A stretch of 64,000 nucleotides of DNA from assembly GCA_041650755.1 (NCBI GenBank), contig JBAZKN010000003.1, forward strand, positions 86,466-150,465, in the 5' to 3' direction. Source of the DNA: Patescibacteria group bacterium. Lineage in GTDB: Bacteria > Patescibacteriota > Patescibacteriia > UBA1558 > GWA2-36-10. Shown here in pieces: positions 15,288-59,138 of this stretch. The notes under the pieces were generated by a model that saw nothing but the letters and a program-made list of their open reading frames with translations, ran no database searches and was not told where the DNA came from. How positions within the stretch are numbered: position 1 is the first letter of the stretch; each line of letters starts with the position of its first letter. The translations under genes and the position numbers were made by a program.

Positions 15288-16937
15288 TTGGCGTACTATA
15301 CTTTTTTTTGCTACAATAAAGCCATGCCTAAAATGAAAATGTATATCAATTGGCGCTTGTTGAGAACTGGATTTTTCGATTGGCGACTAAACTATGCCGG
15401 TATTTTTTTACTTATGCTGGGCTACTACGGCTGGCTGCAGCGCGTCCCTTATATCGGCGATCCTGATGGCTTCTATCATGCCAAAATGGCTGTGTTTTTG
15501 CGCCAAGGCATTATTCTAAAATCTTTACCCTGGATGCAATTTAGCACTTTGCGGGATCATTTCACCGACCATCATCTCCTCTATCATATATTACTGGCGC
15601 CATTTACTCTTATCCAAGATAACCCACTGCTTGGCGTCAAAATTGCCGCTATAGTTTTTGCCGCCATAATGGTGACTGTTTTTTATTGGCTACTAAAAAA
15701 ATTAGATATTGCCTGGCCGGCTTGGCTAACCCTACTTTTCGTCACCTTATCCGGTTTAAATTTTCGTCTAGCTTTAATAAAAGTAAGCCCCCTATCAATA
15801 CTAGTTGTCTGGCTGCTAATTTACGCTTTATACAAAGAAAAGAATTGGCTTACCTTTGCCTTGGGTTTTATCTTTGTCTGGCTGTATGGCGGCTGGCCCA
15901 TAGCTCTGATGGTATTACTTGCTTATCTGCTGGCGGAAAAAATATACATTTTTATCCATCAGAAAAAAATTAATCTGCTGCACAAAAAGATAGTATTAGC
16001 TCTCCCTTTTGCCCACAAATCTAAAGCTTATTTCCGCCAAAGCTTGGCGCTAATCTCCGGCCTAGTTGCTGGCCTTATTGTAAATCCTTATTTCCCAACT
16101 AATTTATATTTTTATTACCAACAATTTGTCCAAATCGGTGTTATCAATATGGGCAATAAATTTTCGGTGGGGGAAGAGTGGTATGGGGCCAACTTTGGCC
16201 AAGTGGTCAGTGTCGCGCCCCACATATTTGCCTTGGCTTGTGTTTTGTTTGTCATTCTATTTTACAACCACCGCCGCATCAGTCGCCTGACCATATTTAG
16301 CTTTGGTCTGACTTTTGTCTTCTTATTTCTAACCATGAAGTCGCGCCGCTACTTAGAATATTATTCTCCATTTTTATTATTATATGCTGCCACAGCCTTA
16401 AATGATGTCAAAAACGCCATTTCTTGGAAAAAAATGAACAAATTTTGGGATAGTCTAGCCTGGTATGTAAGAACTTATTTAGCTATTACCGTATTATTTT
16501 TCTGCATACTGGCTATGCCAAAAATATATGAACAAGCCCTCAATACGGCTATAAATAAACGGCTGCCCTTAAACCAATTTGCCGGAGCGGCCAATTGGCT
16601 AAAAAACAACACGCCAGCACACAGCTTGGTCTTCCATACTGACTGGGATGAGTGGCCGATGTTATTCTATTTTAATGACCAAAATTATTATATGGTTGGG
16701 CTGGACTTTACTTTTATGTACAACTATAGTCCGGAGCTACAAAAAGAATACATTGACATCACCACCAACCAAATGCCAGAGCCCTTGGCCAAAAAAATCA
16801 AACAAGATTTTGGGGCCAGTTATATATTTATAGAAAAAATGGACCGCGATAATCTAATAAAAAAATTAGAAACCGATCCGGATATGTCCCGAGTCTATAA
16901 TGATGAAAAAACTTCCATCTACAAAATAAATCTATGA
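15288..16937 (+). CDS. Large polytopic membrane protein, possibly a GT-C-fold glycosyltransferase
   Basis: 549 aa with more than 10 predicted TM helices and an acidic DPDGFYH motif in the first loop. It has a 4-bp overlap with the next gene. Confidence 0.45.
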   Translation: MAYYTFFCYNKAMPKMKMYINWRLLRTGFFDWRLNYAGIFLLMLGYYGWLQRVPYIGDPDGFYHAKMAVFLRQGIILKSLPWMQFSTLRDHFTDHHLLYHILLAPFTLIQDNPLLGVKIAAIVFAAIMVTVFYWLLKKLDIAWPAWLTLLFVTLSGLNFRLALIKVSPLSILVVWLLIYALYKEKNWLTFALGFIFVWLYGGWPIALMVLLAYLLAEKIYIFIHQKKINLLHKKIVLALPFAHKSKAYFRQSLALISGLVAGLIVNPYFPTNLYFYYQQFVQIGVINMGNKFSVGEEWYGANFGQVVSVAPHIFALACVLFVILFYNHRRISRLTIFSFGLTFVFLFLTMKSRRYLEYYSPFLLLYAATALNDVKNAISWKKMNKFWDSLAWYVRTYLAITVLFFCILAMPKIYEQALNTAINKRLPLNQFAGAANWLKNNTPAHSLVFHTDWDEWPMLFYFNDQNYYMVGLDFTFMYNYSPELQKEYIDITTNQMPEPLAKKIKQDFGASYIFIEKMDRDNLIKKLETDPDMSRVYNDEKTSIYKINL

Positions 16938-18526
16938 AAAAAATATCTGTTTGGTTCAAAAAAAATTGGGTCCTGATTACTATAATTATAATATTTTTAT
17001 TATTAAACAATCTCAATTATCTAGCTGGTTTTCTATTTAGCGTGAAATCGACTGATCTTATATACGGCGGTGCACCAACCACCAATATTGGCGACTATAA
17101 TGTTTATCTGTCATACATACAACAGGGTTGGCAAGGCCACCTATTCATGAAAATATTATACAACCCGGCTAGCCGATATCTTTTATTTTCCCCTATTTGG
17201 TTTCTCATCGGGCAGTTCAACCGCCTGACCGATCTAAATATAATCTTCAGCTACCACTTATTTAGGGCTTTACTTAGTTTGGTATTTATTGGCGTACTTT
17301 ATTGGTGGCTAAAAAAAATATTTAACCAAAAATGGCTACGCTTGTCTGCTTTAGCCTTTATTTTATTTAGTAATGGTTTTGGCTTATTTTTTCTCAATAT
17401 TTTACATCATTATCAGTTGTCGCCAAGCAATCAATGGATACCGGAATCTATTACTTTTTTAAACCTCAATCAGGGCCCTCTATTCATCATCTCCCAAGCC
17501 TTACTGCTACTGGTCTTTAGCCTGTTCATAAAGGCCTGGCAAGAAAGAAGACCCCGGCTCCTGTTTTGGGCCTGTCTAGCCAACTTATTTTTAGGTTTAA
17601 ATCATCCCTATGACCTGGTGACTATAATGTGCATTCTCTTGATCTTTACTACTTGGGAGTATCTAGAAAAAAGACAAATTAAGATTATTTTTTATTATGC
17701 TGCTTTGGGTATCTCCACTTTGCTGGCTGGCGCCTACCTGCTCTACTTGCTCAAAGACCCCAGCATGCAACAATACCAGGCGCAAAACATACTGCTGTCA
17801 AAAAACATCTGGGAATATATTTTTGGTTTTGGTGCTTTGACTGTTCTGTCTCTACTGGGAATATTTTATGTATTAAAACAAAAATTATATATCAACCCTC
17901 ACATCAAATTACTGGCTATCTGGGCACTATGCGGCTGGGTCCTAGTGTACTTGCCGCTTGACTTTAACCGGCGTCTAAGTAATGGCTGGCACATTGCCCT
18001 GGCCGCCATAAGTTTTTTGGCTATTATCCAAATTTCTAAAAAAATAAATTTTTACTGGCGCCTGATTTTTTTAGGTTTTATAATGAGTGTTTGCCTTTTT
18101 GACACTCTGGGGCACATAATAAATGATGTTATTATTACCCGAGACATCGCCAGGCGGCCTCTATTTTTTTTCAGCCAGGCGCGGATGAAAAATTATCAAT
18201 TTATTAAAAAAATAAACACCGAGCACGATGTGTTTTTAAGCCGTAATAACGACGCCGGACTTTTACCGGCCTTTACCGGCTGCACTGTCTATATGGGCAA
18301 TTCCATACTCACGCCCAATGCCAGCCAAAAAAATGCGCAAATTGCCAATCTTTGGGCTAGCCGACAAGATATTGGTGATTGGCTAAAAGACAATAAAATC
18401 ACCTATATCTTTGCCAGCCGAGACTATATACCGGAATTTGAACAAATAAAATGGCTGGCCGATCAGCCATATATAGAGCCGGTTATTGATAATGATTCTT
18501 TTTTATTATACAAGGTCAGAAGCTGA
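16934..18526 (+). CDS. Large polytopic membrane protein, possibly a GT-C-fold glycosyltransferase, with a C-terminal soluble domain
   Basis: 530 aa with many TM helices and a C-terminal soluble region of about 150 aa. It is translationally coupled to the upstream gene. Confidence 0.45.
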   Translation: MKKISVWFKKNWVLITIIIIFLLLNNLNYLAGFLFSVKSTDLIYGGAPTTNIGDYNVYLSYIQQGWQGHLFMKILYNPASRYLLFSPIWFLIGQFNRLTDLNIIFSYHLFRALLSLVFIGVLYWWLKKIFNQKWLRLSALAFILFSNGFGLFFLNILHHYQLSPSNQWIPESITFLNLNQGPLFIISQALLLLVFSLFIKAWQERRPRLLFWACLANLFLGLNHPYDLVTIMCILLIFTTWEYLEKRQIKIIFYYAALGISTLLAGAYLLYLLKDPSMQQYQAQNILLSKNIWEYIFGFGALTVLSLLGIFYVLKQKLYINPHIKLLAIWALCGWVLVYLPLDFNRRLSNGWHIALAAISFLAIIQISKKINFYWRLIFLGFIMSVCLFDTLGHIINDVIITRDIARRPLFFFSQARMKNYQFIKKINTEHDVFLSRNNDAGLLPAFTGCTVYMGNSILTPNASQKNAQIANLWASRQDIGDWLKDNKITYIFASRDYIPEFEQIKWLADQPYIEPVIDNDSFLLYKVRS

Positions 18527-20405
18527 CCCGCCCGCCAAGCGGCTCAAGTTTAGCATCTAGATAAACCTCATTGATCTGACCCAGCTTATTATCACCACTC
18601 CAATAAAAGACTTGATAACTGTCCACTGCAACCTCTGGATAATAATAAAAATTAACCAGTTTATCATCGGGCCAGTCTTTGACTGGCAATAAGCCATAAT
18701 CAAGCGGCAAATCAAAATAATATTCGCCCCGATAAAAACGCACTAGATAATTTTTTTCCTGATCACCGGTCTTTTGATAACTTATTTTTAATACCGACCT
18801 ATCACCATCTATTTGTCTTTGGCCATAAACGACCATGCCCTGCTCTATCTTATCGGGCAAAGCACTAAAATCATAAAGCTTTAATTCTGGCCGCTGGCTG
18901 AATTTTTTATTTTGCCATAAATACATATTATTTTCTGCCCTGACCAAGCCATAGCCAGACAATATCTGACGCCAGTGCTTAGCCATATTGGGCCAATATG
19001 CCCTGGTGGGTGCTTTCTGGGCCTCTGATAGGGTGGTCAAAAAATCATTATAATCGACCACAATATAGTCGACTTCCGGCATCTCAAATTCAGTAAAGAC
19101 AAACTGTGAAACTCCAAAATAGGCATAATCTAAATTATATAAAGTCGACCGATTGCTTAGGGCTGGCAATAAATTTACCTGGGCAGTGGCTATAGCAGTA
19201 TCTGGTATCTCCTGCAAGAAACTGACCACCTGCTCGTGATATCCTGCAGGATAAGTCCTGGCCAAAATATGCCTGGCCGGCGAAAGAAAAACAGCAAAAT
19301 AAAGCAAAGTAAAAATAAAAATAAATTTAAAAAAACCAAAATTATTATAAACCACCCCACTGCCTAAAAATTTTTCTCGCTGGCTGATCTTGTCTAAAGC
19401 AAAGATTAGCGCCACGAAAATGCCTGGTAGAATTAATAACACAAAACGACTGCTATAAGCTACGCTAGAAAAACCGGCCGTACCCAAAGCTAGTTGTAAA
19501 AACGGCAATAATGACAACAATAAATATTTTGGCTTCAAAATAGGCAAAAATAACAAGGGCAGCAGCACAATAGCTAAACTAGATATGTTTCTCCAGGAAA
19601 ATAGGTGCGCTAAAAAAGCTATCGGGTGACTTAGCCAACTTAAAAATATAGACCACAGGTCTTTGCCGCCCAACCAACCATAATAGATAAAATATTTATA
19701 ATTACCGGCCAAAGAAAAATATTTGATAATAAAAACTGCTAAGATAAAATATGAAATCGGTAATAAAATACTGGTTATTTTCCATTTAACGCTTTTTTTG
19801 TCAAAGAAAGACAGACCAAAAAAGGCCAGCAAAATAAAACTGATGTCTTCTCTGACCAGGAGCGCTAAAATAAAAAATAATAAAAATAATTTATAATTAT
19901 TTTTTAGATAAAAATAAAAACAAAATAAAACCAAAAAGGCGGCCATATACATCAGATGGGATTCATCTAAGTTGGCACTTTGGACAAATGGACTCAAGAG
20001 CCAGGCAATAGCTGCCAGCAAACTCAGTTGAATATTTTTGGTCACCTGCTTGGCAATCAAGTAGAGCGGCCAAGCTGATAAACCCAAAAAAATTGTTTGT
20101 AAAATCAGCAGGACCTGCGGGCCCGGCTTAATGGCGTAAAATGGCAATAGCAAAATAATGATGGGGGAAAAATGATCGCCTAAATAACTATTTAGAGTAA
20201 TCGTCTCTTGAAACCAGCGGCCATGCAGAGTGTTAAAAAATACTTGGTTAAAAATAGCTAGGTCACTGACATTATAAGTAAAATAATAATATCTTTTGAG
20301 TGCCAAAAAAATAAAAACTGCAGTGTATATGGCTATTACCAACCACAAAAATAAGCTAGCCCGTCTATTTAAAATAATATTTATTTTATTTTTGAATACA
20401 GGCAT
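18516..20405 (-). CDS. Large polytopic membrane protein with a C-terminal extracytoplasmic domain
   Basis: 629 aa with about 12 or more TM helices followed by a soluble tail of about 130 aa. It is convergent with the two preceding membrane-protein genes. Confidence 0.45.
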   Translation of the reverse strand: MPVFKNKINIILNRRASLFLWLVIAIYTAVFIFLALKRYYYFTYNVSDLAIFNQVFFNTLHGRWFQETITLNSYLGDHFSPIIILLLPFYAIKPGPQVLLILQTIFLGLSAWPLYLIAKQVTKNIQLSLLAAIAWLLSPFVQSANLDESHLMYMAAFLVLFCFYFYLKNNYKLFLLFFILALLVREDISFILLAFFGLSFFDKKSVKWKITSILLPISYFILAVFIIKYFSLAGNYKYFIYYGWLGGKDLWSIFLSWLSHPIAFLAHLFSWRNISSLAIVLLPLLFLPILKPKYLLLSLLPFLQLALGTAGFSSVAYSSRFVLLILPGIFVALIFALDKISQREKFLGSGVVYNNFGFFKFIFIFTLLYFAVFLSPARHILARTYPAGYHEQVVSFLQEIPDTAIATAQVNLLPALSNRSTLYNLDYAYFGVSQFVFTEFEMPEVDYIVVDYNDFLTTLSEAQKAPTRAYWPNMAKHWRQILSGYGLVRAENNMYLWQNKKFSQRPELKLYDFSALPDKIEQGMVVYGQRQIDGDRSVLKISYQKTGDQEKNYLVRFYRGEYYFDLPLDYGLLPVKDWPDDKLVNFYYYPEVAVDSYQVFYWSGDNKLGQINEVYLDAKLEPLGGRVSF

Positions 20406-20441
20406 GCAAATATTATAACATGGTAAAAAATTTCTTACCTC

Positions 20442-20470
20442 TTGACAAAAGCAGATTTGTATTATATAAT
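20442..20470 (+). promoter_or_regulatory. Consensus sigma70-type promoter (TTGACA-17-TATAAT) upstream of the GC-rich islet 1 gene
   Basis: TTGACA at 20442-20447, a 17-nt spacer, and TATAAT at 20465-20470. Confidence 0.5.
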
Positions 20471-20576
20471 ATAATGTTGAATAGAAAGCCGCGCCAAAAA
20501 CCCTTGGATTGACGGCTTTTGCCCTTTACAACACACCACAGCGTTCTCTGCCCAAAAAAGGCAGAAAGGAGCCACC

Positions 20577-21278
20577 ATGAAGCGTCTGGTCGTTTTCCTG
20601 TGCCTGCTGGCCCTGGCCAGTGGGTGCGCTACTGTTCGGGACCCCAGTGGAAGGGTCCTCACCGGGCATCGCAGCGACCCAGAGCCCACGGCCCGGCTCA
20701 TCCTCAAACAGCGGGCCAGTCAACCCATCGAGGTTGACTATCGCTGGCCGGCAACAGACTTCCAGCTCGTCATGCCTGGCACCGACTTCTCGATCGACTC
20801 GAAAACGTACTGGCAGTCACGCATTACCATCAGGTGGTACTGCAGTGGCTGTTCGACAACCGAAGTGGGCCAGACCGCAGAGCAGATGTCGTTCGAAACG
20901 ACAATGCTCTATGACCAAAAGCCAATAGTGATCGACGATTTCTTCCTGCGGAAAATGATGCTCCAACACGGAGTCATCATGAATAGCGACATCCTCCCTG
21001 TGCACATATGGAATAACAGGGGCATCGACTATGGCATCATCGAACCGCGAAAATCGACGGGCATCAAGGAGCTACTGCCCGGCACAGTGACGTTCTACTG
21101 TCAATACATGGTGCGCCGAGCCGATCGCTGGCTATACAGCTACGATCGCAGCATCCGCTCGATCACCATTTCGATCGACAACAAGGACGACAACTTCGTC
21201 TGGGTCGACGAAAGGGGTGTATCCCACCTATTGGGTTGGCATGTCAATGCCGAGCCAATGGCCATCCCTGAACGCTGA
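20577..21278 (+). CDS. GC-rich islet 1: lipoprotein of unknown function (233 aa)
   Basis: Strong RBS AAAGGAG 5 nt upstream. The signal peptide carries a lipobox (LALASG-C). Codon usage is rich in GCC/CTG/CGC, unlike the host. I recognise no conserved family motif. Confidence 0.55.
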   Translation: MKRLVVFLCLLALASGCATVRDPSGRVLTGHRSDPEPTARLILKQRASQPIEVDYRWPATDFQLVMPGTDFSIDSKTYWQSRITIRWYCSGCSTTEVGQTAEQMSFETTMLYDQKPIVIDDFFLRKMMLQHGVIMNSDILPVHIWNNRGIDYGIIEPRKSTGIKELLPGTVTFYCQYMVRRADRWLYSYDRSIRSITISIDNKDDNFVWVDERGVSHLLGWHVNAEPMAIPER

Positions 21279-21285
21279 AAACAAA

Positions 21286-21336
21286 GGGCCCCGGCGCCGC
21301 CGCTATGCGGCGTGCGCCGGGGCCCTCTTCTTTTTC
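21286..21336 (+). terminator. Intrinsic terminator of the islet 1 gene
   Basis: A perfect 12-bp GC stem (gggccccggcgc ... gcgccggggccc) is followed by a TCTTCTTTTTC T-tract. Confidence 0.7.
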
Positions 21337-21355
21337 TAAAAAATTTTAAAATTAT

Positions 21356-21754
21356 CTACCCCCCACCAGTCATGCCGCCACCCGTTGGGCTAAGACTAGC
21401 CCTAGCCAAAAACTTGACTACATAATAAACAATCGCGTAAGAAGCAAAGATAATCAACAAGCCAATCATGGAATTAATAATGGTCTCTTTGGCTTTTTTT
21501 ATTTGGTCAGGATTGCCGGACGAGGTCATCCAGCGAATGCCAGACATAATAATCAAAACTATAAATATCGCCCCGACAAAAGATAGAATGATGTTGATTA
21601 TGGCCGAGATAATTTGCACCGGATCACGATTAGTAATCAAACCAGTATTGCTACCAGCTCGACGCAAAGATTCTAATGGGTCAACCTCATCAGCTAATGC
21701 TACTGCCGGCAATAGTAGAATAAAAAGAAAAATAATTTTTAAGAGATATCGCAT
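21356..21754 (-). CDS. T4SS-pilin-like (TrbC/VirB2-like) small secreted membrane protein, paralog A
   Basis: 132 aa with a signal peptide and two hydrophobic helices flanking the conserved core IINIILSFVGAIFIVLIIMSGIRWMTSSGNPDQIKKAKE...IGLLIIFASYA. This core is shared with the three neighbouring genes. Confidence 0.55.
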   Translation of the reverse strand: MRYLLKIIFLFILLLPAVALADEVDPLESLRRAGSNTGLITNRDPVQIISAIINIILSFVGAIFIVLIIMSGIRWMTSSGNPDQIKKAKETIINSMIGLLIIFASYAIVYYVVKFLARASLSPTGGGMTGGG

Positions 21755-21846: not shown

Positions 21847-22221
21847 CTATGGAGTTGTGGCAACAGTATTATTGAACAATGAACCGATGATGAAGGTGGA
21901 TAGAGCATAAGCGGCAAAGATGATGGCAATGCCGATAACGGCAGCGCCCATCAATTTCTTGGCTTCATCAATCTTATCGGTGTTGCCCTGGGAAGTTAAC
22001 CATTTGAAGCCAGCATACAAGAATAACAAAATGGCTAAAGCGCCCAAAAAGCTCAAAATGATGTTGATGATATTTGATACGGTTTCATAAACATTCTTGG
22101 TGGAATAAACCAACAAATTGTTTAAGTTTTGGGTACCAAAATTGGTAACGTCAACAGCTAAAGCTTGGTTGGCCACCAACATACTGGGCAATAAAAGCGC
22201 TAAGGCTAATAATTTTTTCAT
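21847..22221 (-). CDS. T4SS-pilin-like small secreted membrane protein, paralog B
   Basis: 124 aa with the core IINIILSFLGALAILLFLYAGFKWLTSQGNTDKIDEAKK...IGIAIIFAAYA. Confidence 0.55.
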   Translation of the reverse strand: MKKLLALALLLPSMLVANQALAVDVTNFGTQNLNNLLVYSTKNVYETVSNIINIILSFLGALAILLFLYAGFKWLTSQGNTDKIDEAKKLMGAAVIGIAIIFAAYALSTFIIGSLFNNTVATTP

Positions 22222-22321: not shown

Positions 22322-22651
22322 TTATCTAGTAACTAATAGCGTACCCATAATAAAATTCAAAATCACATAAGAAACAAAGATCATGACCAGGCCAAAAATT
22401 GCCCAAACCAATGTGTCTTTGCCCCTAGTAATACGGTCTTTATTGCCTTGGGAAGTAAGCCAAGTTACGCCCCCAATAATCAAGTATATCAAGGCTATGG
22501 CTCCAACTATGCCCAAAACGCCCCTAATAGTATACTGAATGGCTGTCTCTACATCATTAGCTTTTAATGGATTATACAGGGGAACATCAGCCCTAGCCAC
22601 CCACGGGGCTAGTAATGGCAACAAACCAAAGATTATTTTTTTATTTTTCAT
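22322..22651 (-). CDS. T4SS-pilin-like small secreted membrane protein, paralog C
   Basis: 109 aa with the core VLGIVGAIALIYLIIGGVTWLTSQGNKDRITRGKD...FGLVMIFVSYV. Confidence 0.55.
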   Translation of the reverse strand: MKNKKIIFGLLPLLAPWVARADVPLYNPLKANDVETAIQYTIRGVLGIVGAIALIYLIIGGVTWLTSQGNKDRITRGKDTLVWAIFGLVMIFVSYVILNFIMGTLLVTR

Positions 22652-22671: not shown

Positions 22672-23373
22672 TTAAGGCAAGCTGACGCAGCCGGGCGTAA
22701 GTAAACAATCACTAATGGCCTGATAGGTGGGGTCAGCAAAAATCGCCGGGTTGCCACTAGCATCAAATTTGGTGCAAATATTACTCACGCCGCCGGGACA
22801 CAGGTCTTTCTCAAAGTAAGCCGGTGCATTGATACTGGCCGCTAAACTTTCAGCAATAGTATGGCAGCGCCAGTCTTCGTTAGCCATCACTGCCTTCATC
22901 TCGCAGCGGCTAATGCAATCCTCTTGATAACACACGTAAACATCACTGCCGCCACAAGCAGTATTATCCGCCTTACCTTGGCACTCTGGTACTTCTTGGG
23001 CAATCCTGACCTCTTCTTTAACATTCAACATATTGTTGACGAAAAAACTCAAAACCAAATAGCTAGTAAAAGCTATAACCAGCGCCCAAATGGTGTTGAC
23101 CATTATTTCTTTACCCCGGCTAATGCGATTTGGCACGCCTTCAGATGTCAGCCACTCTATGCCACCATAGATAAAAAATAACAGGGCCACGCCGGCCATA
23201 CCACCCAAAAGCAATTTAATCAAAAGTATCAATGCTGTGCTAATATCCGCCAGCTGGCAATCACCGCTATCTAAACAATTTTTCAAAGCTGGATTATCCA
23301 AAAATCCGGTAATGGCCGCCTGGCTGCCAAGTGGCCAAAGTAAAAAAATAAGCCAGCCAAGTTTTTTAATCAT
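22672..23373 (-). CDS. T4SS-pilin-like N-terminal module fused to a cysteine-rich extracellular domain
   Basis: The N-terminus has the same core (GGMAGVALLFFIYGGIEWLTSEGVPNRISRGKE...WALVIAFTSYL). It is followed by about 120 aa containing 13 Cys (CQGKADNTACGG...CYQEDCISRCE...CPGGVSNIC...CLLTPGC). The start is placed at the internal Met (MIKKLGW). Confidence 0.5.
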   Translation of the reverse strand: MIKKLGWLIFLLWPLGSQAAITGFLDNPALKNCLDSGDCQLADISTALILLIKLLLGGMAGVALLFFIYGGIEWLTSEGVPNRISRGKEIMVNTIWALVIAFTSYLVLSFFVNNMLNVKEEVRIAQEVPECQGKADNTACGGSDVYVCYQEDCISRCEMKAVMANEDWRCHTIAESLAASINAPAYFEKDLCPGGVSNICTKFDASGNPAIFADPTYQAISDCLLTPGCVSLP

Positions 23374-24745
23374 TTTTTGATTGATAAGTTTGATTAATGC
23401 GATCAACTAGTGCCCTCAGATCGGTCGTCTTATTTAAATCTATTTTGCCGGAATTTATATCATTTATAAAATCGGCAAAATATTGTTCGGCTTTATTATA
23501 ATCATAGCCATTATACCAATTGTCGGCTGTCAAAACCTGCGAAGCGAAAACAGCTAACTCTGGATCGGCTGTCTGCTCTTTGATCAAAGAACGCAGCGCG
23601 GTTGGCTTTTTAGTATTCTTTAAATAAGTCTTTACCAGATCGGCTGAAGCAGTGCTTTGGATAAAATTCCAGGCCGCATCACTATTTTTTGATTTGGCCG
23701 GCACTACATTGACCCAATAATCAGAGTAATATTTGGTGCCTTGGCTACCGGGAGTTTGGGGAAAATTAGTTATTCGCCACTCAAAGGGCGTGCCCTTCTG
23801 TCGCAAAGCATCAGCGTGATAACTATAGCCAAAAAAATAAGCTAATTTACCTTCGGCAAACATATCAAAAGCATTGGGTAAAGAATTGCTCCAGCTATAA
23901 CTAGATAGGCCGACCCGCATAAAATCAGTGTAAAAACCCAGATCTCTGGCAAGATTACTGGCTGAAGTGTCATCGCGCAAAGGCAAAAAAGAATTACCCT
24001 TAATATTTACATTTGTTTGCAATAATAAATTGGATATGATGCCTAAAAATCCCGGTATATTATCAGCTCCACCCATAGCTACAGCTGCCTGATAAATCTC
24101 ATTATCTTGGCCAACCTTAGTCAATTTTGGGGTCTGCTCTATTAATTCAGAAAAATCCTTCATCGGCTCGGCTATACCAGCAGCGGATAACAATTTTGAA
24201 TTATAAAAAGTCACCATAGTATCCAATGAATACGGCAGGCCATATATCTTTCCATCTCTAACTACATTATTATAAACCACATCAACAAAACGAGATTTAA
24301 TATCATCAGACGAGTATCCCTTTACTTCCTGCAAACTAGTAACGACTTCTTTTTTAATAGACCCCTTTACCTCTTGTACTGGGATTTTTACGCTGGCTGG
24401 CATCGGTTTCAAACGCGACTCATATTCTTTTAGCCAACTAGCTGGTATGGCAAATATGTCTGGGCCACGATCATCGGCCCAGGCTTCTAATAGTTCGTTC
24501 TCATATTCTTCATAACGCAATTGGCGGTACTGTACCTTGATGGTTGGGTGAGTAGCTTGATAAGCCTGAATCAATGGCCCAATTTGGGCTTGGCTATCCC
24601 ACACCCCCCAATATTGCAAAGTGACTGGTCTGGCTTCTGGTGGCTTGGTAATACTGCAACCGCCAGTAGAATTTTTACAGGCAAAACCAGAGGTGATCAT
24701 CAACACGCCAATTAATAATAATGATAATTTTTTGTAGCTGCGCAT
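23366..24745 (-). CDS. ABC transporter extracellular solute-binding lipoprotein (family 1, sugar-type)
   Basis: 459 aa with a lipoprotein signal and lipobox (ITSGFAC). The length and composition are typical of carbohydrate-type substrate-binding proteins. Confidence 0.65.
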   Translation of the reverse strand: MRSYKKLSLLLIGVLMITSGFACKNSTGGCSITKPPEARPVTLQYWGVWDSQAQIGPLIQAYQATHPTIKVQYRQLRYEEYENELLEAWADDRGPDIFAIPASWLKEYESRLKPMPASVKIPVQEVKGSIKKEVVTSLQEVKGYSSDDIKSRFVDVVYNNVVRDGKIYGLPYSLDTMVTFYNSKLLSAAGIAEPMKDFSELIEQTPKLTKVGQDNEIYQAAVAMGGADNIPGFLGIISNLLLQTNVNIKGNSFLPLRDDTSASNLARDLGFYTDFMRVGLSSYSWSNSLPNAFDMFAEGKLAYFFGYSYHADALRQKGTPFEWRITNFPQTPGSQGTKYYSDYWVNVVPAKSKNSDAAWNFIQSTASADLVKTYLKNTKKPTALRSLIKEQTADPELAVFASQVLTADNWYNGYDYNKAEQYFADFINDINSGKIDLNKTTDLRALVDRINQTYQSKND

Positions 24746-43301: not shown

Positions 43302-43328
43302 TTGACAAAAGCGCGCTTGTGTTATAAT
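43302..43328 (+). promoter_or_regulatory. Promoter-like TTGACA-15-TATAAT upstream of the GC-rich islet 2 gene
   Basis: TTGACA at 43302-43307 and TATAAT at 43323-43328. The 15-nt spacer is short. Confidence 0.35.
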
Positions 43329-43411
43329 TTATATTGTCAACCAAGAACAACAAAATGGTTGGGTACCTTCGCTTCCCAAACGCGGAACCAAAAGCCATGG
43401 AGGTGGCCGGT

Positions 43412-44032
43412 ATGTCAGCGTCCTCTGGTGGTCACAGTCTCCTTGTCCGCATGGGCCTTGTGTTTCTGGCGGTGCTGGTCCTGTCCTCGCTGGCCTGGAC
43501 CAGCTACGAAGCCCGCCTGGGCCACGCTCCCCACAACAACGCGACGCTGCTCTTCAACTGGTCCTGGCTGGCCAACCTGCCTCGGCCCGATTCCGACCCG
43601 CTGGCGCTCGGCATCCTGCTGCTCGGAATCTACGCCCTGCTCAAGCTCGTCAGCTTCAACCCGATCGCGAGCGTGGGCCAAATGGCTATTGGCCTCACGG
43701 TGTATTGCCTGGCCGGCTCGTGGCTTGGGCCTGCCTGGGGTCTGCTGGCCAGCTTGATCGTCGGCTTGGTGATTTCTTTTCTTTTCACGCTCCGCCACAT
43801 TAGGCGGATCCAGCAGGGTCACCGCCGAGAGCGTCTGCTCTTCAGTGATGTAGTATTCGAGCTCTTCTTATCGCCGCTAACTGGGGGCAACGGCATTATG
43901 CCAGGTATAGTACTGGGCATTGGTGCAATCAACGGCTTTGCGGTAGCACTACCCATGGCCTTTGTCCTGTTGGTGCTGCCCCTGATTCTGCTCTGCGGCG
44001 TCTTGGCCATAGCAGAAAACGACGACCTCTAG
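43412..44032 (+). CDS. GC-rich islet 2: polytopic membrane protein of unknown function (~207 aa)
   Basis: RBS GGAGGTG lies 6 nt before the ATG at 43412. About 5-6 hydrophobic helices. High-GC codon usage. The ORF-track version starts further upstream at 43334. Confidence 0.5.
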   Translation: MSASSGGHSLLVRMGLVFLAVLVLSSLAWTSYEARLGHAPHNNATLLFNWSWLANLPRPDSDPLALGILLLGIYALLKLVSFNPIASVGQMAIGLTVYCLAGSWLGPAWGLLASLIVGLVISFLFTLRHIRRIQQGHRRERLLFSDVVFELFLSPLTGGNGIMPGIVLGIGAINGFAVALPMAFVLLVLPLILLCGVLAIAENDDL

Positions 44033-44044
44033 CCACACTGATTC

Positions 44045-44094
44045 ATTGCGAGATTCTCGCAACCGTTGCTTGCCAGGCAACGGTTTTTTCTTTT
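44045..44094 (+). terminator. Intrinsic terminator of the islet 2 gene
   Basis: Tandem hairpins (ttgcgag...ctcgcaa, then aaccgttgc ttgccag gcaacggtt) are followed by TTTTTCTTTT. Confidence 0.65.
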
Positions 44095-44107
44095 ATAATA
44101 TAGAAAT

Positions 44108-44392: not shown

Positions 44393-44506
44393 AGTCTTTC
44401 TTGCGAAAGAAATCAATATTTTCTGGAATATCCCAGGAGATCCACTTCGACGCGAGAACCTCCAAGGTTATAACATTATAACAAATCTTTTTAAATGTGG
44501 CAAAGT

Positions 44507-45610
44507 CTATTGCCTAATAGGCATCACTAAATACAAATAGTCTTGGTTGCTGGTTGGCTGCAATAATCCAGGGGAAGAATTATTGTTAGTCTTTAAGATT
44601 GTCTGGCTGCCATCAATTGTGTTAAGCCCATCCAATAAATATCTGTAATTAAAAACAATGTCGTTGTTTTCTCCTTTAATTTCTGCTTGAATCTTAGCCG
44701 TACTATTGCCTGTGTTGGCCGAAGCAGTAGAAACTACAATTTCGCCCGCGCTATGATCAAGGCTCAAGCGAATGTCATTGATGCCTTGTTTGCAAAATAA
44801 TGACACGGCCTTAATGGCTGGTATCAATTTATCAATGTCGCATTTGGCTGTTGTCACAAAACTATTGGGAATTATTTGCTTGTAGTCTGGATAGCGACCA
44901 TCAATCACTCGAGACACCAACTCTACTCCATCAAAAACAAACAGTATTTGGTTTTCATTAAAATATAATTTTATTTTTTCATCATTTTGCTCGACTAGTA
45001 TGCGGGACAGTTCTTGTAGGGTTTTGAGAGGAATAATTAAACTAATTTCCCTGCCCTTATTTTCAATTTTAATTTTTCTCTCCGCCAACCTGTAGCTGTC
45101 GGTGGCTGCTAAAACCAGCTGATCTTTATAAAAATGAAAGTTTACGGCATTAATCTCAACCCTAGAGCTATCCAAAGAGGCTGCAAATAATACTTGGTTT
45201 AACCCCTTTTTAAGATCGCTGGCCGCTATTTCAATTTCATTGTTTTTTTCTATTTCTGGTATCAAAGGAAAGTCCTCTGCTTCTAAGCCCTTAATACTGG
45301 TTTCTTGATTTGAGCTTTTAACTTCTAGGCTGCCATCCTTTAGTTCTAAAATAATATTCTCTTTGGGTAAGAGGCTAATGAAGTTATTTAATAATTTGGC
45401 CTCAACGGTAAAATCTCCTTCCTCTTCTACTTTACTACGAACAAAAACTCTGATACCAATTTCTAAATCAGTGGTTACAAGGATTAAACCCCCTTTATCG
45501 GCTTTTAATAAAACGTTGTTTAAAATAGGAAGATTACTATTTTTATTAGCAATGTGGGAGACTAGTCCTAAGCCCTTGTTTAAATTTTCTTGGGTGCAAA
45601 CGATTTTCAT
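44507..45610 (-). CDS. dnaN: DNA polymerase III beta sliding clamp
   Basis: 367 aa with the three-domain beta-clamp architecture and an N-terminus MKIVCTQENLNKGLGLVSHIA typical of DnaN. It lies directly downstream of dnaA. Confidence 0.85.
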   Translation of the reverse strand: MKIVCTQENLNKGLGLVSHIANKNSNLPILNNVLLKADKGGLILVTTDLEIGIRVFVRSKVEEEGDFTVEAKLLNNFISLLPKENIILELKDGSLEVKSSNQETSIKGLEAEDFPLIPEIEKNNEIEIAASDLKKGLNQVLFAASLDSSRVEINAVNFHFYKDQLVLAATDSYRLAERKIKIENKGREISLIIPLKTLQELSRILVEQNDEKIKLYFNENQILFVFDGVELVSRVIDGRYPDYKQIIPNSFVTTAKCDIDKLIPAIKAVSLFCKQGINDIRLSLDHSAGEIVVSTASANTGNSTAKIQAEIKGENNDIVFNYRYLLDGLNTIDGSQTILKTNNNSSPGLLQPTSNQDYLYLVMPIRQ

Positions 45611-45855
45611 ATTATTATTAATTATATATTTATAAATAAAGTAGTATTAGTAGAGGGTGTTTATATGTGGATAGAGAGCAGAAAATTTTTAATTTACTGG
45701 GGTTGGGCGCCTATATTTTCTATAAATCAATAGGGGAAAAGTTGTTGGCAAGTTGAAAAAATATTTTTTAGTTTGGGGACAAGTTTAGAAAAAAAGTTTC
45801 TTATTAAAAAGTTTTTATTATCTATAAACAATTTGTTCTAAGTATTATACACAGC
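45611..45855. other. Putative oriC segment (dnaA-dnaN intergenic) with DnaA-box-like 9-mers
   Basis: AT-rich spacer of 245 nt. It contains TGTGGATAG (45666-45674), TTATCTATA (45818-45826) and TTATACACA (45845-45853). These have 1, 2 and 1 mismatches to TTATCCACA or its reverse complement. Confidence 0.45.
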
Positions 45856-47232
45856 TTATTCATAGATTTTCTGTCTTAGGACAGATAGATCATTTTTTAT
45901 TTTGTCGTCCGCTGTGGCCAGTTCAGCAATTTTTAAGCAAGCGTGCATAGCCGTGGTGTGGTCTCGGCCACCAATCTCTTGACCAATGTTTGGGAAAGAA
46001 CTTTTTAGCTGTTCGCGCATCAAAAACATTGCAATTTGGCGGGGTAAAACCAGCTCTTTTTTACGACTAGAGCCCAACAATTGCTCTAAGGTAATGCCAA
46101 AAAAGTCAGCCACAACACGAAGTAGTTTTTTGCTGGTTAGGCCGGCTTTTTTTGGGTTGGCAGATATGCCACTAAGTAAAGAACGCACGCTTTCTATAGT
46201 GGGAGCAGTATTGTTTAATTGGTGAAAGGCAATAATTCTGTTTAGTGCGCCCTCTAATTCACGGATATTTTCCTGGATGTTTTCTGCAACCAAATGGACG
46301 ATGTCAATTGCCAGGCGGTAATTGCGTTGTTGGCACTTCATTTCTAGGATGGCCACCCGGGTTTCTAAGTCGGGGAAAGAAATATCAGCGATCATTCCCC
46401 ACTCAAAACGAGAAATTAGGCGGTTTTCAATGCCCGGTATAGCCTTGGGCGGCCGGTCAGAAGAAATAATAATTTGTTTATTGTTTTGGTGCAAGGCATT
46501 AAAGGTGTGAAAAAATTCCTCCTGAGTTTGCTCTTTTCCGGCGATAAACTGGATATCATCAATTAATAAAACATCAACATTGCGGTAAATGTTTTTGAAT
46601 TGATCAGTCTTCCCGCTTTTTATTGCGAAAATGAAGTCATTGGTAAATTTTTCGCTGTTTATATAGAGAATCTTTTTCTTGGGGTTTTTTTCTAAGATAT
46701 AGTTACCAACGGCCTGCACCAGGTGAGTTTTTCCCAAGCCAACCCCACCATAAATAAATAAAGGGTTATAAATTTCCCCCGGTTTTTGGGCGGCTGCCAG
46801 GGCCGCTGCTTGAGCCAGCTCATTTCCCGGGCCAACTATGAAAGTATTAAAAACATAGTGGTTGTTTAGGCCGAATTTATTGGTATTTTTTTGTCCATTT
46901 TGAGAAGCAGAGTTATTCACAGGGGGTATTTCAGCAACAGCAGTTTGGCTAGTTTTTTGGCTAATATTAGCCGAATAGCTCTTTGATTCCACCCTGTAGA
47001 TAACCTGTAGATTATTTTTTAACAAAACATCCTCTAGTGCCTTGGCGATGTGGTTGTGGTATTTCTTTTCCAGCCAAACTTTAGTAAAAGAATTTGGTAC
47101 ACCAACCACTACCTGTTGGTCATCAAACTCAACCAAAAAGGTATTTTTGAACCAAGTGGTAAAATTAGCTCGGCTAATCAAAAGCTCAAGCTGGCCCAAG
47201 GCACTTTGCCAAATTTTGTCATTATTTTCCAT
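45856..47232 (-). CDS. dnaA: Chromosomal replication initiator DnaA
   Basis: 458 aa with the AAA+ Walker A GGVGLGKTHL, Walker B LLIDDIQF and a C-terminal DnaA-box-binding domain. Confidence 0.9.
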   Translation of the reverse strand: MENNDKIWQSALGQLELLISRANFTTWFKNTFLVEFDDQQVVVGVPNSFTKVWLEKKYHNHIAKALEDVLLKNNLQVIYRVESKSYSANISQKTSQTAVAEIPPVNNSASQNGQKNTNKFGLNNHYVFNTFIVGPGNELAQAAALAAAQKPGEIYNPLFIYGGVGLGKTHLVQAVGNYILEKNPKKKILYINSEKFTNDFIFAIKSGKTDQFKNIYRNVDVLLIDDIQFIAGKEQTQEEFFHTFNALHQNNKQIIISSDRPPKAIPGIENRLISRFEWGMIADISFPDLETRVAILEMKCQQRNYRLAIDIVHLVAENIQENIRELEGALNRIIAFHQLNNTAPTIESVRSLLSGISANPKKAGLTSKKLLRVVADFFGITLEQLLGSSRKKELVLPRQIAMFLMREQLKSSFPNIGQEIGGRDHTTAMHACLKIAELATADDKIKNDLSVLRQKIYE

Positions 47233-47420
47233 GAATTTAAAGAAATAAACTAGCTTAAATATAGCACAGAAATTTATTAACTCAAATATACACAGCAGAT
47301 GATAAGGTGTTTATAAGCTGTTGATAAGATAACACACATTTTTTGTCTAATAAAGACCTTGCTAAAACCAGGCCATCATGTTATCATAAGTACGATAATT
47401 TTATAAAAAGCTCAAAAAAT
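47233..47420. other. dnaA upstream / rpmH promoter region (possible second oriC module)
   Basis: AT-rich divergent intergenic region with only weak DnaA-box-like 9-mers (ATATACACA at 47286-47294). Confidence 0.3.
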
Positions 47421-50568: not shown

Positions 50569-50751
50569 CGTTGATATTTGTTAGCCCCCTAATTATTACT
50601 AATACTATTTAATATAAGAAATATAAAAAGGTGTAGAATATGCTACACTTTTTTATGTGCTATACTTTATACAAATTCCGTAAAGAAAGCCATATTTTAT
50701 CTAATATTTGCTATATTGTAGATTATTGGTATAAATTTTAGGTAAAACAAA

Positions 50752-50795
50752 GGGGCCCATGTGAACACAGCGCTAAACGCTGTTGCTCGGGCCCC
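50752..50795 (-). terminator. Intrinsic terminator of the islet 3 gene
   Basis: Nested GC hairpin ggggccc ... (acagcg ctaaa cgctgt) ... gggcccc, followed on the minus strand by CTTTGTTTTACC. Confidence 0.6.
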
Positions 50796-50800
50796 AGGGC

Positions 50801-51148
50801 TCAGTACCACCTCGGGCTCAGGATGTGGAATATCGGCGGCACCAGGAAAAACCTGCCGATTATCCAGAACAAGAGCACGAGCAGCACGTAAGCTACTGCC
50901 GGAGACTTGCCTTTCCAGAGAGCGATGATCTGGCTGAAGATGACGAACATGAGCCAGACCACCCCAAGAAACAGGATCGAGCGGCCGACACACCAGAAGG
51001 TAGCGCCGAACGCCCAATGAGACAGGATCGCCGGCCGGAACAGCCACTTGTAACTGAGGCAACCCAGGAGCACGATCATGGCCCAGGTCACCAAAGTCCA
51101 GAGCAGTCCGCCGAACCCCTGAAAGAACACTCCCAGAAACTCCTTCAT
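50801..51148 (-). CDS. GC-rich islet 3: small polytopic membrane protein of unknown function (115 aa)
   Basis: RBS GAGGAGGTG lies 5 nt before the ATG. 3-4 TM helices (MKEFLGVFFQGFGGLLWTLVTWAMIVLLG...). High-GC codon usage. Confidence 0.5.
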   Translation of the reverse strand: MKEFLGVFFQGFGGLLWTLVTWAMIVLLGCLSYKWLFRPAILSHWAFGATFWCVGRSILFLGVVWLMFVIFSQIIALWKGKSPAVAYVLLVLLFWIIGRFFLVPPIFHILSPRWY

Positions 51149-51198
51149 GGGTCACCTCCTCGAACGGGTCTAGGGGGCGGGCTTTCTTGTAACATTAA

Positions 51199-51227
51199 AT
51201 AATAGCATAAATATATATATTTGTCAA
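51199..51227 (-). promoter_or_regulatory. Consensus sigma70-type promoter (TTGACA-17-TATTAT) driving the islet 3 gene
   Basis: On the minus strand, TTGACA is at 51227-51222 and TATTAT at 51204-51199, with an exact 17-nt spacer. Confidence 0.5.
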
Positions 51228-54717: not shown

Positions 54718-54747
54718 TAAAAATCCACCCCACTGGTAGCAGGGTGG
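54711..54747 (-). terminator. Intrinsic terminator of the islet 4 gene
   Basis: On the minus strand: ccaccctgctaccagtggggtgg hairpin followed by ATTTTTATT. Confidence 0.55.
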
Positions 54748-54771
54748 TTGTGCGCCCAAGGGGCTAAAAGG

Positions 54772-55011
54772 CTACTGGCGCAGGATCATTTCGGTGGTAG
54801 AGAACTTCTGCGGATCGGTGAACACGACGCTGCAGGTGGTGCAATGGTAGCGTCGGTTTTTGGGGTCGTCGTGGGGGTTGGCCACAGTGAAAGCGTGGCC
54901 ACGGCAGACACGGCAGGTGAACCAGCCCTCGATACCAAGAGGCATGTGCTGAGCGTCGGGGAGAACAGCCACCCCTCTCCCAGCAATGGATGCTACGACT
55001 CCGCTCGGCAT
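54772..55011 (-). CDS. GC-rich islet 4: small zinc-ribbon-like protein of unknown function (79 aa)
   Basis: RBS GAGAAGGAGAG upstream. Two Cys pairs (CRVCRGH ... HCTTCS). High-GC codon usage. Confidence 0.45.
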   Translation of the reverse strand: MPSGVVASIAGRGVAVLPDAQHMPLGIEGWFTCRVCRGHAFTVANPHDDPKNRRYHCTTCSVVFTDPQKFSTTEMILRQ

Positions 55012-55076
55012 TAGTCTCTCCTTCTCGTTCCTACTTGTTGGTAGCTATAGCAAAGGTGCATTTAGTGAACAGACTA

Positions 55077-55104
55077 ATTTTACAGGCTGATTTATATATG
55101 TCAA
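55077..55104 (-). promoter_or_regulatory. Promoter (TTGACA-16-TAAAAT) on the minus strand upstream of the islet 4 gene
   Basis: On the minus strand, TTGACA is at 55104-55099 and TAAAAT at 55082-55077. Confidence 0.4.
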
Positions 55105-55142
55105 CCAAAGGTCCAGCAAGTGGGCTTATTTATTTTTATGCT

Positions 55143-58553: not shown

Positions 58554-58655
58554 GGCTGATTGACTTTATTTGTATTATATTATATAAACAATACTTGTCT
58601 GTTCGTTTGACCAGGGTTTAGGATCTTGGCTAAAAGCCAGAATGAGAGGTGCGTC

Positions 58656-59084: not shown

Positions 59085-59108
59085 GTCGAACACTCATCTT
59101 ACTCTTTG

Positions 59109-59138
59109 CCGTCGCGTCCTTAGCGGCGGTTTTTCTTT
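59109..59138 (+). terminator. Terminator of the islet 5 gene
   Basis: ccgtcgc gtcctta gcggcgg stem (one G-U pair) followed by TTTTTCTTT. Confidence 0.5.

Follow-up and report, generated by a model that had tools for sequence, protein, structure and literature searches.

Arrays of VirB2-like pilin genes, belonging to the Pfam families PF18895 (T4SS_pilin, after the type IV secretion system, T4SS) and PF04956 (TrbC), are widespread in Patescibacteria, with 2–11-gene arrays being recorded in 383 assemblies (PMC12102498). Such arrays are essential for epibiotic growth in Southlakia epibionticum, the one tractable member of the group (PMC10633639), their accessory factors and assembly partners are unknown (PMC10633639, PMC12102498), and neither of these reports mentions the lipoprotein described below as a component linked to the arrays. 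Here we describe a GC-rich gene for a predicted lipoprotein which lies beside such an array in a 64,000-nucleotide stretch of DNA (hereinafter the window) from a Patescibacteria group bacterium (GenBank assembly GCA_041650755.1, contig JBAZKN010000003.1, positions 86,466 to 150,465 of the forward strand). The 3–5 divergent pilin paralogs seen here fit the reported range of array sizes; however, the lipoprotein is not itself a pilin and the array is set in a cell-envelope polysaccharide neighbourhood.

In its predicted features the product resembles the bacterial lipoproteins of the Sec/Lgt/LspA pathway, as captured by the PROSITE pattern PS51257: it has a K/R-bearing n-region, a hydrophobic core, an A-S-G|C lipobox with Cys17, and a soluble, beta-rich, tethered ectodomain. 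Unlike these, its mature domain falls in no described lipoprotein family. The VirB7/TraV lipoproteins are likewise fast-evolving and encoded beside VirB2-type pilin genes, and VirB7 has no usable hidden Markov model. However, VirB7 is about 45–65 aa long and works with the outer-membrane proteins VirB9 and VirB10, whereas the present protein has 233 aa and two beta-sandwich domains with no adjacent VirB9 or VirB10 gene, and the T4SSs of Patescibacteria are of the monoderm type. We thus rejected an assignment to the VirB7/TraV type on the basis of size and partner genes, the neighbours being DUF2079, pilin, SBP, NTP_transferase and Wzy genes.

Compositionally atypical genes are commonly classed as acquired islands under the Lawrence–Ochman amelioration framework. 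The gene is like such islands in that its GC content and its GC content at third codon positions (GC3) lie far outside the genomic distribution, but differs from them in being orthologous, syntenic and co-diverged with its flanks, with silent sites at a GC-rich equilibrium. The large GC-rich genes of Protochlamydia, with a small shift attributed to transfer (PMC2216083), were considered as an analogue and rejected as not comparable.

A syntenic lipoprotein gene and its product

Taking the evidence as a whole, we think it likely that a Patescibacteria clade carries here a native monocistronic gene, passed on by vertical descent, for a cell-surface lipoprotein of an undescribed family. A word-indexed search of 5.8 billion proteins returned only the window protein itself and P0002, which is about 68–69% identical and is encoded on a 4.4-kb contig (L001, GCA_964540095.1) as AT-rich as the window. 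There the order and orientation of the genes are as in the window, with DUF2079 on the minus strand, the lipoprotein gene on the plus strand, and T4SS_pilin genes on the minus strand. The L001 gene has a GC content of 0.58 and a GC3 of 0.77, the GC-rich DNA begins and ends at the same points in the two genomes, and the terminators are of the same kind. The flanking proteins are 63–91% identical and the lipoprotein 69%, with a synonymous divergence (dS) of 1.87 as against 0.85–2.13 in the flanking genes. This same-locus ortholog, with its dS within the range of the flanks, indicates that the common ancestor already carried the gene here and that gene and flanks have since diverged together. Identity at the three codon positions (0.76/0.81/0.48) and a ratio of nonsynonymous to synonymous divergence (dN/dS) of 0.13 further establish that the open reading frame (ORF) is a real gene. 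The conserved start in L001 is MKRLLSLLCLLVLASGC at 2530, giving a protein of 234 aa; the database gene call for P0002 (2371–3234, 287 aa) begins 53 codons early and runs through the promoter.

An earlier reading made from the sequence alone (the sequence-only reading) had taken the block for an islet inserted in host DNA between a membrane-protein gene and a pilin-like array. The placement between the DUF2079 membrane-protein gene and the T4SS_pilin array stands, but insertion is an interpretation that finds no support, and the islet is refuted by what that reading had itself named as telling, since a low-GC relative has a close homolog as a native gene at this very locus. The comparison with related genomes that might lack the insert came out the same way, since a family member occupies the same slot in all 14 distinct loci (the window, L001, L002, L004, L005, L007, L008, which is the same as L013, L009–L012 and L014–L016).

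These loci came from several searches. A word-indexed profile search recovered only five proteins, and an exhaustive phmmer search of 1.84 billion representative proteins was needed to reveal the family; this gave 14 more relatives (E-values 4e-22 to 5e-5, 28–35% identity). A metagenome scan with a 4-sequence alignment led to four loci, the alignments A5 and A6 being too divergent. Besides the window and L001, locus contexts were obtained from nine of the phmmer relatives and three further tblastn hits, and in all 12 of these additional loci, which stem from independent metagenomes, the lipoprotein gene sits in the same slot. It is convergent with an array of 3–5 VirB2-like pilin genes in each of the 13 loci with sequence on that side, and DUF2079 is the divergent neighbour in 9 of 13 readable loci, being missing in L010 and L014–L016. 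The wider region is collinear across loci, comprising GT5, RuvC, YebC, the 530-aa membrane proteins described below, DUF2079 where present, the lipoprotein, the pilins, SBP, NTP_transferase and Wzy; such collinear surroundings across 14 loci mark the region as core genome. Full-length family sequences have 216–240 aa, are 21–35% identical in pairwise comparisons, and share the motifs G.PI.(I/V)DD.FLR...LQ.G.V.N, D..G..YG.L.PG, GP.TF, ID...D..W and a terminal GW. Between loci the lipoprotein diverges more than DUF2079 (21–35% versus 42–55% identity). As a test of co-divergence, the pairwise identities of the two proteins are, given the star-like phylogeny, informative for the one close pair only. 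As judged from these sequence searches, the family is small, clade-restricted and previously undescribed.

The elements of the transcription unit are as follows:

20406..20476, no strand assigned: AT-rich divergent control region between the DUF2079 gene (minus strand) and the lipoprotein gene (plus strand), the best-conserved stretch between the window and L001
20412..20417, minus strand: TATAAT, separated by 6 nt from the start codon of DUF2079 (20405); all six loci compared have ATTATA(A/C)C at this place (20403–20420 in the window)
20442..20470, plus strand: sigma-70-type promoter of the lipoprotein gene, with -35 TTGACA (20442–20447), a 17-nt spacer and -10 TATAAT (20465–20470), a 12/12 match
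20477..20576, plus strand: 5′ untranslated region (UTR) of about 100 nt, with hairpins at 20484–20520 (5′-proximal) and 20547–20565 (just before the ribosome-binding site); GC-rich DNA starts at about 20488
20565..20571, plus strand: Shine–Dalgarno sequence AAAGGAG, with 5 nt between it and the ATG; the orthologs likewise have GGAG-type sites ahead of them
20577..21278, plus strand: lipoprotein coding sequence, 233 aa plus stop, first residues MKRLVVFLCLLALASGCATV; NCBI MFA5127058.1, locus tag WC465_03620, annotated as hypothetical protein
21285..21337, no strand assigned: bidirectional intrinsic terminator, with a 19-bp GC-rich stem (21285–21326), an A-tract upstream and a T-rich tract (21327–21337) downstream

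The consensus promoter and the AAAGGAG site had both been picked out by the sequence-only reading and are indeed present. The promoter is the sole perfect TTGACA-17-TATAAT match on either strand of the window, in which sites with at most one mismatch number 7 as compared to 0.69 expected from shuffles, and TTGACA...TATAAT-like promoters occupy the equivalent position in L001, L002, L004, L005 and L007. The resulting transcript would start near 20477. In the DNA alignment of the window with L001 the stretch from 20411 to 20476 is nearly invariant, and the divergent control layout is the same in the window and those five loci; the minus-strand TATAAT, placed back-to-back with the lipoprotein promoter, probably serves DUF2079 as a -10 element, giving a transcript with little or no leader. 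Both 5′ UTR hairpins are predicted in the window and L001 despite sequence differences, with the block ACGGCTTTTGCCCTTT being conserved. However, their folding z-scores are not significant (-1.2) and the UTR is far shorter and unrelated in L004, L005 and L007, for which reason a conserved riboswitch or attenuator was rejected.

At the other end of the transcript, the previously noted 12-bp GC hairpin with its T-tract holds as to its arms, GGGCCCCGGCGC (21286–21297) pairing with GCGCCGGGGCCC (21314–21325), but the full stem, interrupted by a single bulge, extends to 19 pairs. Its folding energy is -46.1 kcal/mol on the plus strand (z = -7.05 versus shuffles) and -48.4 kcal/mol on the minus strand; this equal folding, together with the upstream A-tract, indicates that the terminator is bidirectional and also serves the convergent pilin gene, which ends at 21356. 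All six loci compared have a hairpin with A- and T-tracts at the same place, and the L001 stem differs in sequence yet still pairs. Thus, the lipoprotein gene is monocistronic with its own promoter, ribosome-binding site and terminator, and each locus examined repeats this design, with a promoter of the TTGACA/TATAAT type, a GGAG site and, at the end, a hairpin between an A-tract and a T-tract.

The protein is divided as follows:

20577..20627, plus strand: predicted type II signal peptide (residues 1–16, MKRLVVFLCLLALASG) and predicted lipidated Cys17 (20625–20627), by a PS51257-style rule
20628..20687, plus strand: flexible tether, residues 18–37, rich in Pro, Arg, Gly and Ser, with a predicted local distance difference test score (pLDDT) of 62–64 and no regular secondary structure; its GC content of 0.66–0.72 is the maximum of the gene
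20688..20912, plus strand: predicted beta-sandwich domain 1, residues ~38–112, strands 39–45, 51–54, 63–65, 70–75, 80–90 and 99–109 (AlphaFold2 model mf536cbbbba61)
20925..21251, plus strand: predicted beta-sandwich domain 2, residues ~117–225, with the best-conserved family motifs PIVIDDFFLRKMMLQHGVIMNS, WN.RG.DYG, PG.VTFY, IDNKDDNF.W and GW

The 233-aa ORF with a type II signal peptide and lipobox, the starting point of the sequence-only reading, is borne out by a PROSITE PS51257-style rule applied by script: MKR supplies two K/R within the first seven residues, LALASG|C with Cys17 fits the pattern [LIVMFWSTAG]2-[LIVMFYSTAGCQ]-[AGS]-C with the Cys at 15–35, and the mean Kyte–Doolittle hydropathy is 2.17 over the 12 residues preceding the lipobox. 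The rule also holds for 13 of the 14 correctly scored family sequences, the exception (P0007) being N-terminally truncated. Four family records outside the script scoring were judged by eye; of these P0003 and P0005 fit the rule, and P0004 and P0013 are near it or ambiguous. A Cys closes the hydrophobic segment in all full-length family members.

That the mature protein carries no recognised motif likewise proved correct: the window protein has no Pfam or NCBIfam match at E-values up to 10, all 17 family members compared against curated families yield isolated chance-level matches only, and PDB sequence searches were empty with the single sequence and the family profile alike. Structure prediction and a fold search, which had been proposed for the mature domain, were run. 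An AlphaFold2 model built on the 17-sequence family alignment (pLDDT 83.9, predicted template-modelling score 0.59, as against a pLDDT of only 34.6 for the single-sequence model) displays a signal helix at residues 3–15, a tether up to about residue 37 and two beta-sandwich domains. Two residues of domain 2, L124 and G132, never vary in the family, and two others, Q130 and N136, hardly do. The CSGC pair is confirmed at residues 89–92 (20841–20852), where it lies in a beta-hairpin of domain 1; a CxxC is present in about half of the family, and we take the pair to form a local disulfide and not to belong to a catalytic or metal-binding site.

The PDB entries ranked first by Foldseek are tandem immunoglobulin (Ig)-like ectodomains and adhesins, namely the extracellular domain of PepT1/2, the TIE protein of Bacillus anthracis (6fwv) and a putative adhesin from Bacteroides (5cag), with E-values from 6e-5 to 5e-3 and template-modelling (TM) scores of only 0.2–0.28; tail-fibre and baseplate Ig-like modules in BFVD score similarly. 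The tandem Ig-like surface modules (PepT1/2, 6fwv, 5cag, Caf1M and FimC) share with our model two consecutive beta-sandwich domains, at TM scores of 0.15–0.28 and 7–13% sequence identity, but inspection of the family alignment by eye shows neither a thioester nor an isopeptide signature, there being no Cys-Gln and no Lys-Asn/Asp pair that is conserved. Chaperone-usher chaperones (PapD, FimC, Caf1M) appear lower in the Foldseek list (probability 0.1–0.47, TM 0.15–0.21) and were rejected as a model, there being no Pfam PapD match; no usher-like gene was found among the neighbours.

The immediate neighbours of the lipoprotein gene in the window are:

18516..20405, minus strand: DUF2079 multi-pass membrane protein gene (Pfam PF09852, E = 1.8e-52), divergent and outside the lipoprotein transcript
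21356–21754, 21847–22221 and 22322–22651, minus strand: three VirB2/TrbC-like T4SS_pilin genes (Pfam PF18895, PF04956), convergent with the lipoprotein gene
22672–23406, minus strand: longer Cys-rich pilin-like gene ending the array, with a weak T4SS_pilin match, a conserved motif (AG(F/I)LD.L.C...G.CGL) at the N-terminus and a C-terminal extension rich in Cys

Counterparts of this longer gene are present in L004, L005, L007, L009–L011 and L016. No VirB4 match was found among the neighbouring genes scanned. Beyond DUF2079, positions 15288–18526 (plus strand) encode two tandem paralogous multi-pass proteins of about 530–550 aa without a Pfam match, which are conserved across the clade upstream of DUF2079, overlapping it tail-to-tail, and have paralogs in L005, L009, L010, L012, L014 and L015; they are probably further envelope glycosyltransferase-like proteins.

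We envisage that the near-consensus sigma-70 promoter, set in AT-rich DNA, would drive a transcript with a strong Shine–Dalgarno site ending at the very stable bidirectional terminator, which also serves the VirB2-like pilin array converging on it. Sec would export the precursor, which would then be acylated on Cys17 and processed by signal peptidase II, and the product would display two tandem Ig-like beta-sandwich domains on a linker of about 20 residues at the outer face of the cytoplasmic membrane. No catalytic site is apparent from the conserved residues, which points to a binding or scaffolding role; the linkage to the array, the envelope-glycan neighbourhood, the lipid anchor with its tether and the two Ig-like domains in turn point to a pilin or surface-polymer partner. 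Hence, we tentatively propose, with rather less assurance than for the nature of the gene itself, an envelope binding or scaffolding module that works with the adjacent VirB2-like pilins or with a surface glycoconjugate made by the DUF2079/Wzy/flippase proteins. Several observations count against this picture: the proposed role rests on the neighbourhood, in which DUF2079 is not always adjacent (L010, L014–L016); the fold matches, with TM at most 0.29, establish for the modelled structure only the tandem beta-sandwich fold class; and no Lgt or LspA match was found among the ORFs scanned in the 64-kb window.

Composition, codon choice and mRNA folding

The gene has a GC content of 0.56 (GC1 0.53, GC2 0.43, GC3 0.73) in a window with a mean GC of 0.415 and a GC3 of about 0.42, and all other window ORFs of at least 200 aa fall between GC3 0.36 and 0.47, except for a second GC-rich cassette described below. 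The GC-rich block extends from about 20488 to 21330 with sharp edges and reaches 0.72 in 100-nt windows. As had been noted beforehand, GC falls along the gene, the 5′ third being the richest (0.61–0.72) and the middle lower (0.46–0.50 in 100-nt windows). An overlapping antisense gene was considered as the cause and rejected, the longest antisense ORFs having an unremarkable 62–81 aa. Across the family, the lipoprotein GC3 is the highest among its neighbours in 12 of the 14 loci (lipoprotein gene, then the highest neighbour):

Window: 0.73; 0.50
L001: 0.77; 0.40
L009: 0.63; 0.32
L011: 0.67; 0.49
L005: 0.65; 0.51
L007: 0.55; 0.36
L002: 0.54; 0.34
L012: 0.54; 0.36
L004: 0.54; 0.51
L013: 0.47; 0.36
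L010: 0.62; 0.56
L014: 0.24; 0.23

This composition persists through extensive silent change. Counted at residues that the window and L001 have in common, 51% of the silent third positions of the lipoprotein gene have changed, as compared to 32–38% in the flanks, with changes from G/C to G/C outnumbering those from A/T to A/T by 15 to 1 in the lipoprotein gene (7 to 17 in DUF2079), and 83% of its unchanged silent sites are GC. That half of the silent sites have changed and yet GC3 stands at 0.73 and 0.77 implies a substitution process with a GC-rich equilibrium.

Codon choice is shifted in the same direction, most strongly to codons ending in C. For Phe, Tyr, Ile and Asn, C-ending codons are often preferred in bacterial genes with high expression; their fraction is 0.80 in the window lipoprotein gene versus about 0.2 in typical genes, with rpoB and rpoC of the window at 0.27–0.28 and the thioredoxin, ferredoxin, bactofilin and one pilin gene at 0.47–0.62. 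Pooled over 11 loci, it is 0.59 for the lipoprotein, 0.30 for the pilins, 0.11 for DUF2079, and 0.18 for SBP and NTP_transferase. Similarly, lipoprotein genes use ATC for Ile at 0.63 versus 0.19 in comparison genes, and CTG plus CTC for Leu at 0.58 versus 0.15. The transcript also folds better than its codons require: when the minimum free energy is compared with that of synonymous-codon shuffles which keep the protein and the codon counts, 11 orthologs give a mean z of -3.3 (range -1.4 to -6.5, window -5.8), as against a mean of -0.6 for 18 control genes from the same loci (Mann–Whitney one-sided p = 4e-5). A discrete conserved RNA element inside the coding sequence was rejected, there being no common position in the local z profiles.

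The strong promoter, ribosome-binding site, 5′ hairpin and terminator, together with the composition, suggest a unit built for an abundant, stable message. Our preferred account, which is possible but which we rate just short of an even chance, is that the GC-richness is a state held by selection on the whole transcript, acting through C-ending codons and excess mRNA structure so as to yield an abundant, long-lived message. There is a good deal to set against it. GC is also raised at purine-ending codons, four-fold G, Leu CTG, Arg CGN and in the UTR, with G-ending and four-fold sites being up about 1.4-fold; such a rise at purine-ending and four-fold sites and in the UTR is not predicted by translational selection alone. 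High expression is read from sequence signals only, and rpoB, rpoC and recA show no GC3 shift, while the 64-kb window contains no ribosomal-protein operon or EF-Tu gene, so that the link between codon bias and expression is weakly anchored here. The structural excess is spread along the coding sequence, whose z-score profiles reveal no local RNA element that is conserved, and the shuffling flattens the 5′–3′ GC gradient and may thereby inflate the folding excess. Finally, the most AT-rich relatives, L015 and L016, lack the GC excess, and in L014 it is marginal.

Other origins of the GC-rich state

The best surviving alternative, which we nevertheless hold to be unlikely, is a local non-adaptive process, i.e., GC-biased gene conversion at a recombination hot spot or a mutation bias arising from strong transcription head-on to replication. 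It would accommodate the rise of GC in the UTR and in non-optimal codon classes, and it draws on the faster evolution of the lipoprotein relative to its neighbours, as in recombining surface antigens. Moreover, at every locus the orientation of the gene sets it apart from the others, and judged by the GC-skew minimum at ~45.5 kb it is head-on to replication, as are three of the four other GC-rich cassettes. However, the fourth of these, at 58.6 kb, is co-directional with replication. The GC-rich block also matches the transcript and stops sharply at the promoter and the terminator, which would not be expected of conversion tracts, and the reported effects of GC-biased conversion in bacteria are far below a GC3 rise of 0.3. 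Neither the C-ending excess in Phe, Tyr, Ile and Asn codons nor the folding beyond composition is explained by such a process.

Less probable still is an ancient acquisition by the ancestor of the clade, with the GC excess being a decaying, unselected relic. In its favour, all three codon positions and the UTR are GC-enriched, the excess varies by lineage and is absent from the two most AT-rich ones, as might result from decay, and no family members were found outside the clade among the 1.84 billion proteins. Yet with a family identity of only 21–35%, the silent sites are saturated and a transfer relic should have decayed, whereas GC3 is still 0.15–0.35 above the flanks in most lineages. For the closest pair, if the replacements had followed the genomic spectrum (GC3 ~0.4), the ancestor would by our own estimate have needed a GC3 of at least 1.0. 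Nor does decay predict the excess mRNA structure.

Recent horizontal acquisition of a foreign, GC-rich and possibly host-derived cassette, inserted between the membrane-protein gene and the pilin array, is very improbable. Its appeal lies in the sharply bounded compositional contrast with the window, the self-contained unit with its own promoter and terminator, the single relative returned by the word-indexed search, and the presence of several GC-rich mini-cassettes of the same design elsewhere in the window. Against it stand the co-diverged ortholog between the L001 flanks, the distant family members in the same slot at 12 more loci, and a promoter located in native AT-rich DNA that is conserved between the genomes. 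The locus also lacks marks of mobility, with no bracketing direct repeats or target-site repeats, no integrase and no adjacent tRNA (the nearest being 29 kb away). No relatives were found in phage, plasmid or IMG/VR collections, and neither a GC-rich donor nor a relative outside Patescibacteria in the searches of 5.8 billion and 1.84 billion proteins; all the relatives found come from Patescibacteria-type contexts.

A structured non-coding RNA with the ORF as a by-product of high GC, which is what GC-rich islands in low-GC genomes often prove to be and which the unusually good folding of the transcript might recall, has a negligible chance of being correct, since the substitution pattern by codon position with its low dN/dS already refutes an RNA-only reading, protein-level homologs down to 21% pairwise identity share motifs and lipoboxes, a confident protein model was obtained, and the gene has neither a conserved local RNA element nor an Rfam match (a gathering-threshold scan of the window gives only three tRNAs, all elsewhere).

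Returning to the native, vertically inherited gene, what appears to be new here is an undescribed, clade-restricted family of surface lipoproteins with a linkage to pilin arrays, and an anomaly of composition and RNA folding maintained over evolutionary time. The family offers a concrete candidate partner for the VirB2-like pilin arrays. Composition-based island finders would call the gene foreign though it is an old, syntenic core gene, which bears on estimates of transfer in Patescibacteria, where gene flow from hosts is much discussed. The co-occurrence of GC-rich silent sites and excess mRNA structure in one ortholog across many genomes also furnishes a natural case for examining selection on transcript composition in reduced genomes.

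Further GC-rich cassettes and the surrounding window

Four more single-gene GC-rich cassettes of the same design in the window suggest that the phenomenon is not unique to the lipoprotein gene:

43302–44095, plus strand: second cassette, with TTGACA-15-TATAAT (43302–43328), a probable ATG at 43412 behind GGAGGTG, an ORF to 44032 and a hairpin terminator at ~44061–44090
50745–51227, minus strand: third cassette, with TTGACA-17-TATTAT (51227–51199), ribosome-binding site GAGGAGGTGA, ATG at 51148 and a GGGGCCC...GGGCCCC terminator (50753–50796)
54725–55105, minus strand: fourth cassette, GC 0.60, with TTGACA-16-TAAAAT (~55105–55078), ATG at ~55012 behind GGAGAG and a hairpin at 54726–54748
58570–59135, plus strand: fifth cassette, GC 0.53, GC3 0.64, with ATG at 58656 and a terminator at ~59110–59135

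The second cassette, located between ruvA and a ferredoxin gene beside dnaN, encodes a multi-pass membrane protein of about 206 aa (GC 0.59, GC3 0.74–0.75) that has no Pfam match and whose sole database match is itself (P0018, WC465_03705). The third encodes a 115-aa multi-pass membrane protein (MKEFLGVFFQGFGG...). The product of the fourth, of about 80 aa, has two CxxC pairs that read as zinc-ribbon-like, which makes it not an envelope protein. The fifth specifies a 142-aa protein with an N-terminal membrane anchor (MTKKRGLAWVLIATVLLCC...) and no Pfam match; unlike the lipoprotein gene, it has a codon-shuffle folding z of only -0.4.

By extension, we have considered whether a small set of native, monocistronic, strong-promoter genes is selectively held at a GC3 of about 0.65–0.75 versus 0.42 with excess mRNA folding, a generalisation that we regard as doubtful, though a little less so than the non-adaptive process discussed above. 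The set would include the lipoprotein gene and possibly the four other cassettes, and would amount to a gene-specific expression programme encoded in composition. Such a programme might let an ultra-small cell make its envelope proteins from very long-lived or ribosome-sparing messages; alternatively, it might tie translation to a particular tRNA pool, as a mirror image of the rare-TTA/bldA control in GC-rich Streptomyces. If true, GC-rich "islands" in such genomes could not be read as horizontal transfer.

The tetranucleotide TCGA is avoided in the window (111 observed versus 235 expected) and in relatives (0.25–0.8 sites per kb). The 702-bp lipoprotein gene has 14 sites as against 2.6 expected, an approximately 5-fold enrichment amounting to 13% of the window sites, which stems from ATC-GAC, TCG-ATC and similar codon pairs. 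Clustering of TCGA/GATC as a methylation or regulatory signal was rejected, the TCGA enrichment being found in L001, L012 and L009 and not in the other orthologs. The genome-wide avoidance of TCGA or CpG might reflect a restriction system.

The cumulative GC skew is lowest at ~45.5 kb, between dnaN (44507–45610, minus strand) and dnaA (45856–47232, minus strand), and gene orientation switches there, which places the replication origin inside the window (~44500–47300). Relative to this origin, the lipoprotein gene and cassettes two to four are head-on to replication and the fifth is co-directional. Just ahead of the fifth cassette, positions 56049–58553 (plus strand) encode a secreted protein of 834 aa, a candidate surface adhesin, in which a PKD domain is combined with three lamin-tail domains.

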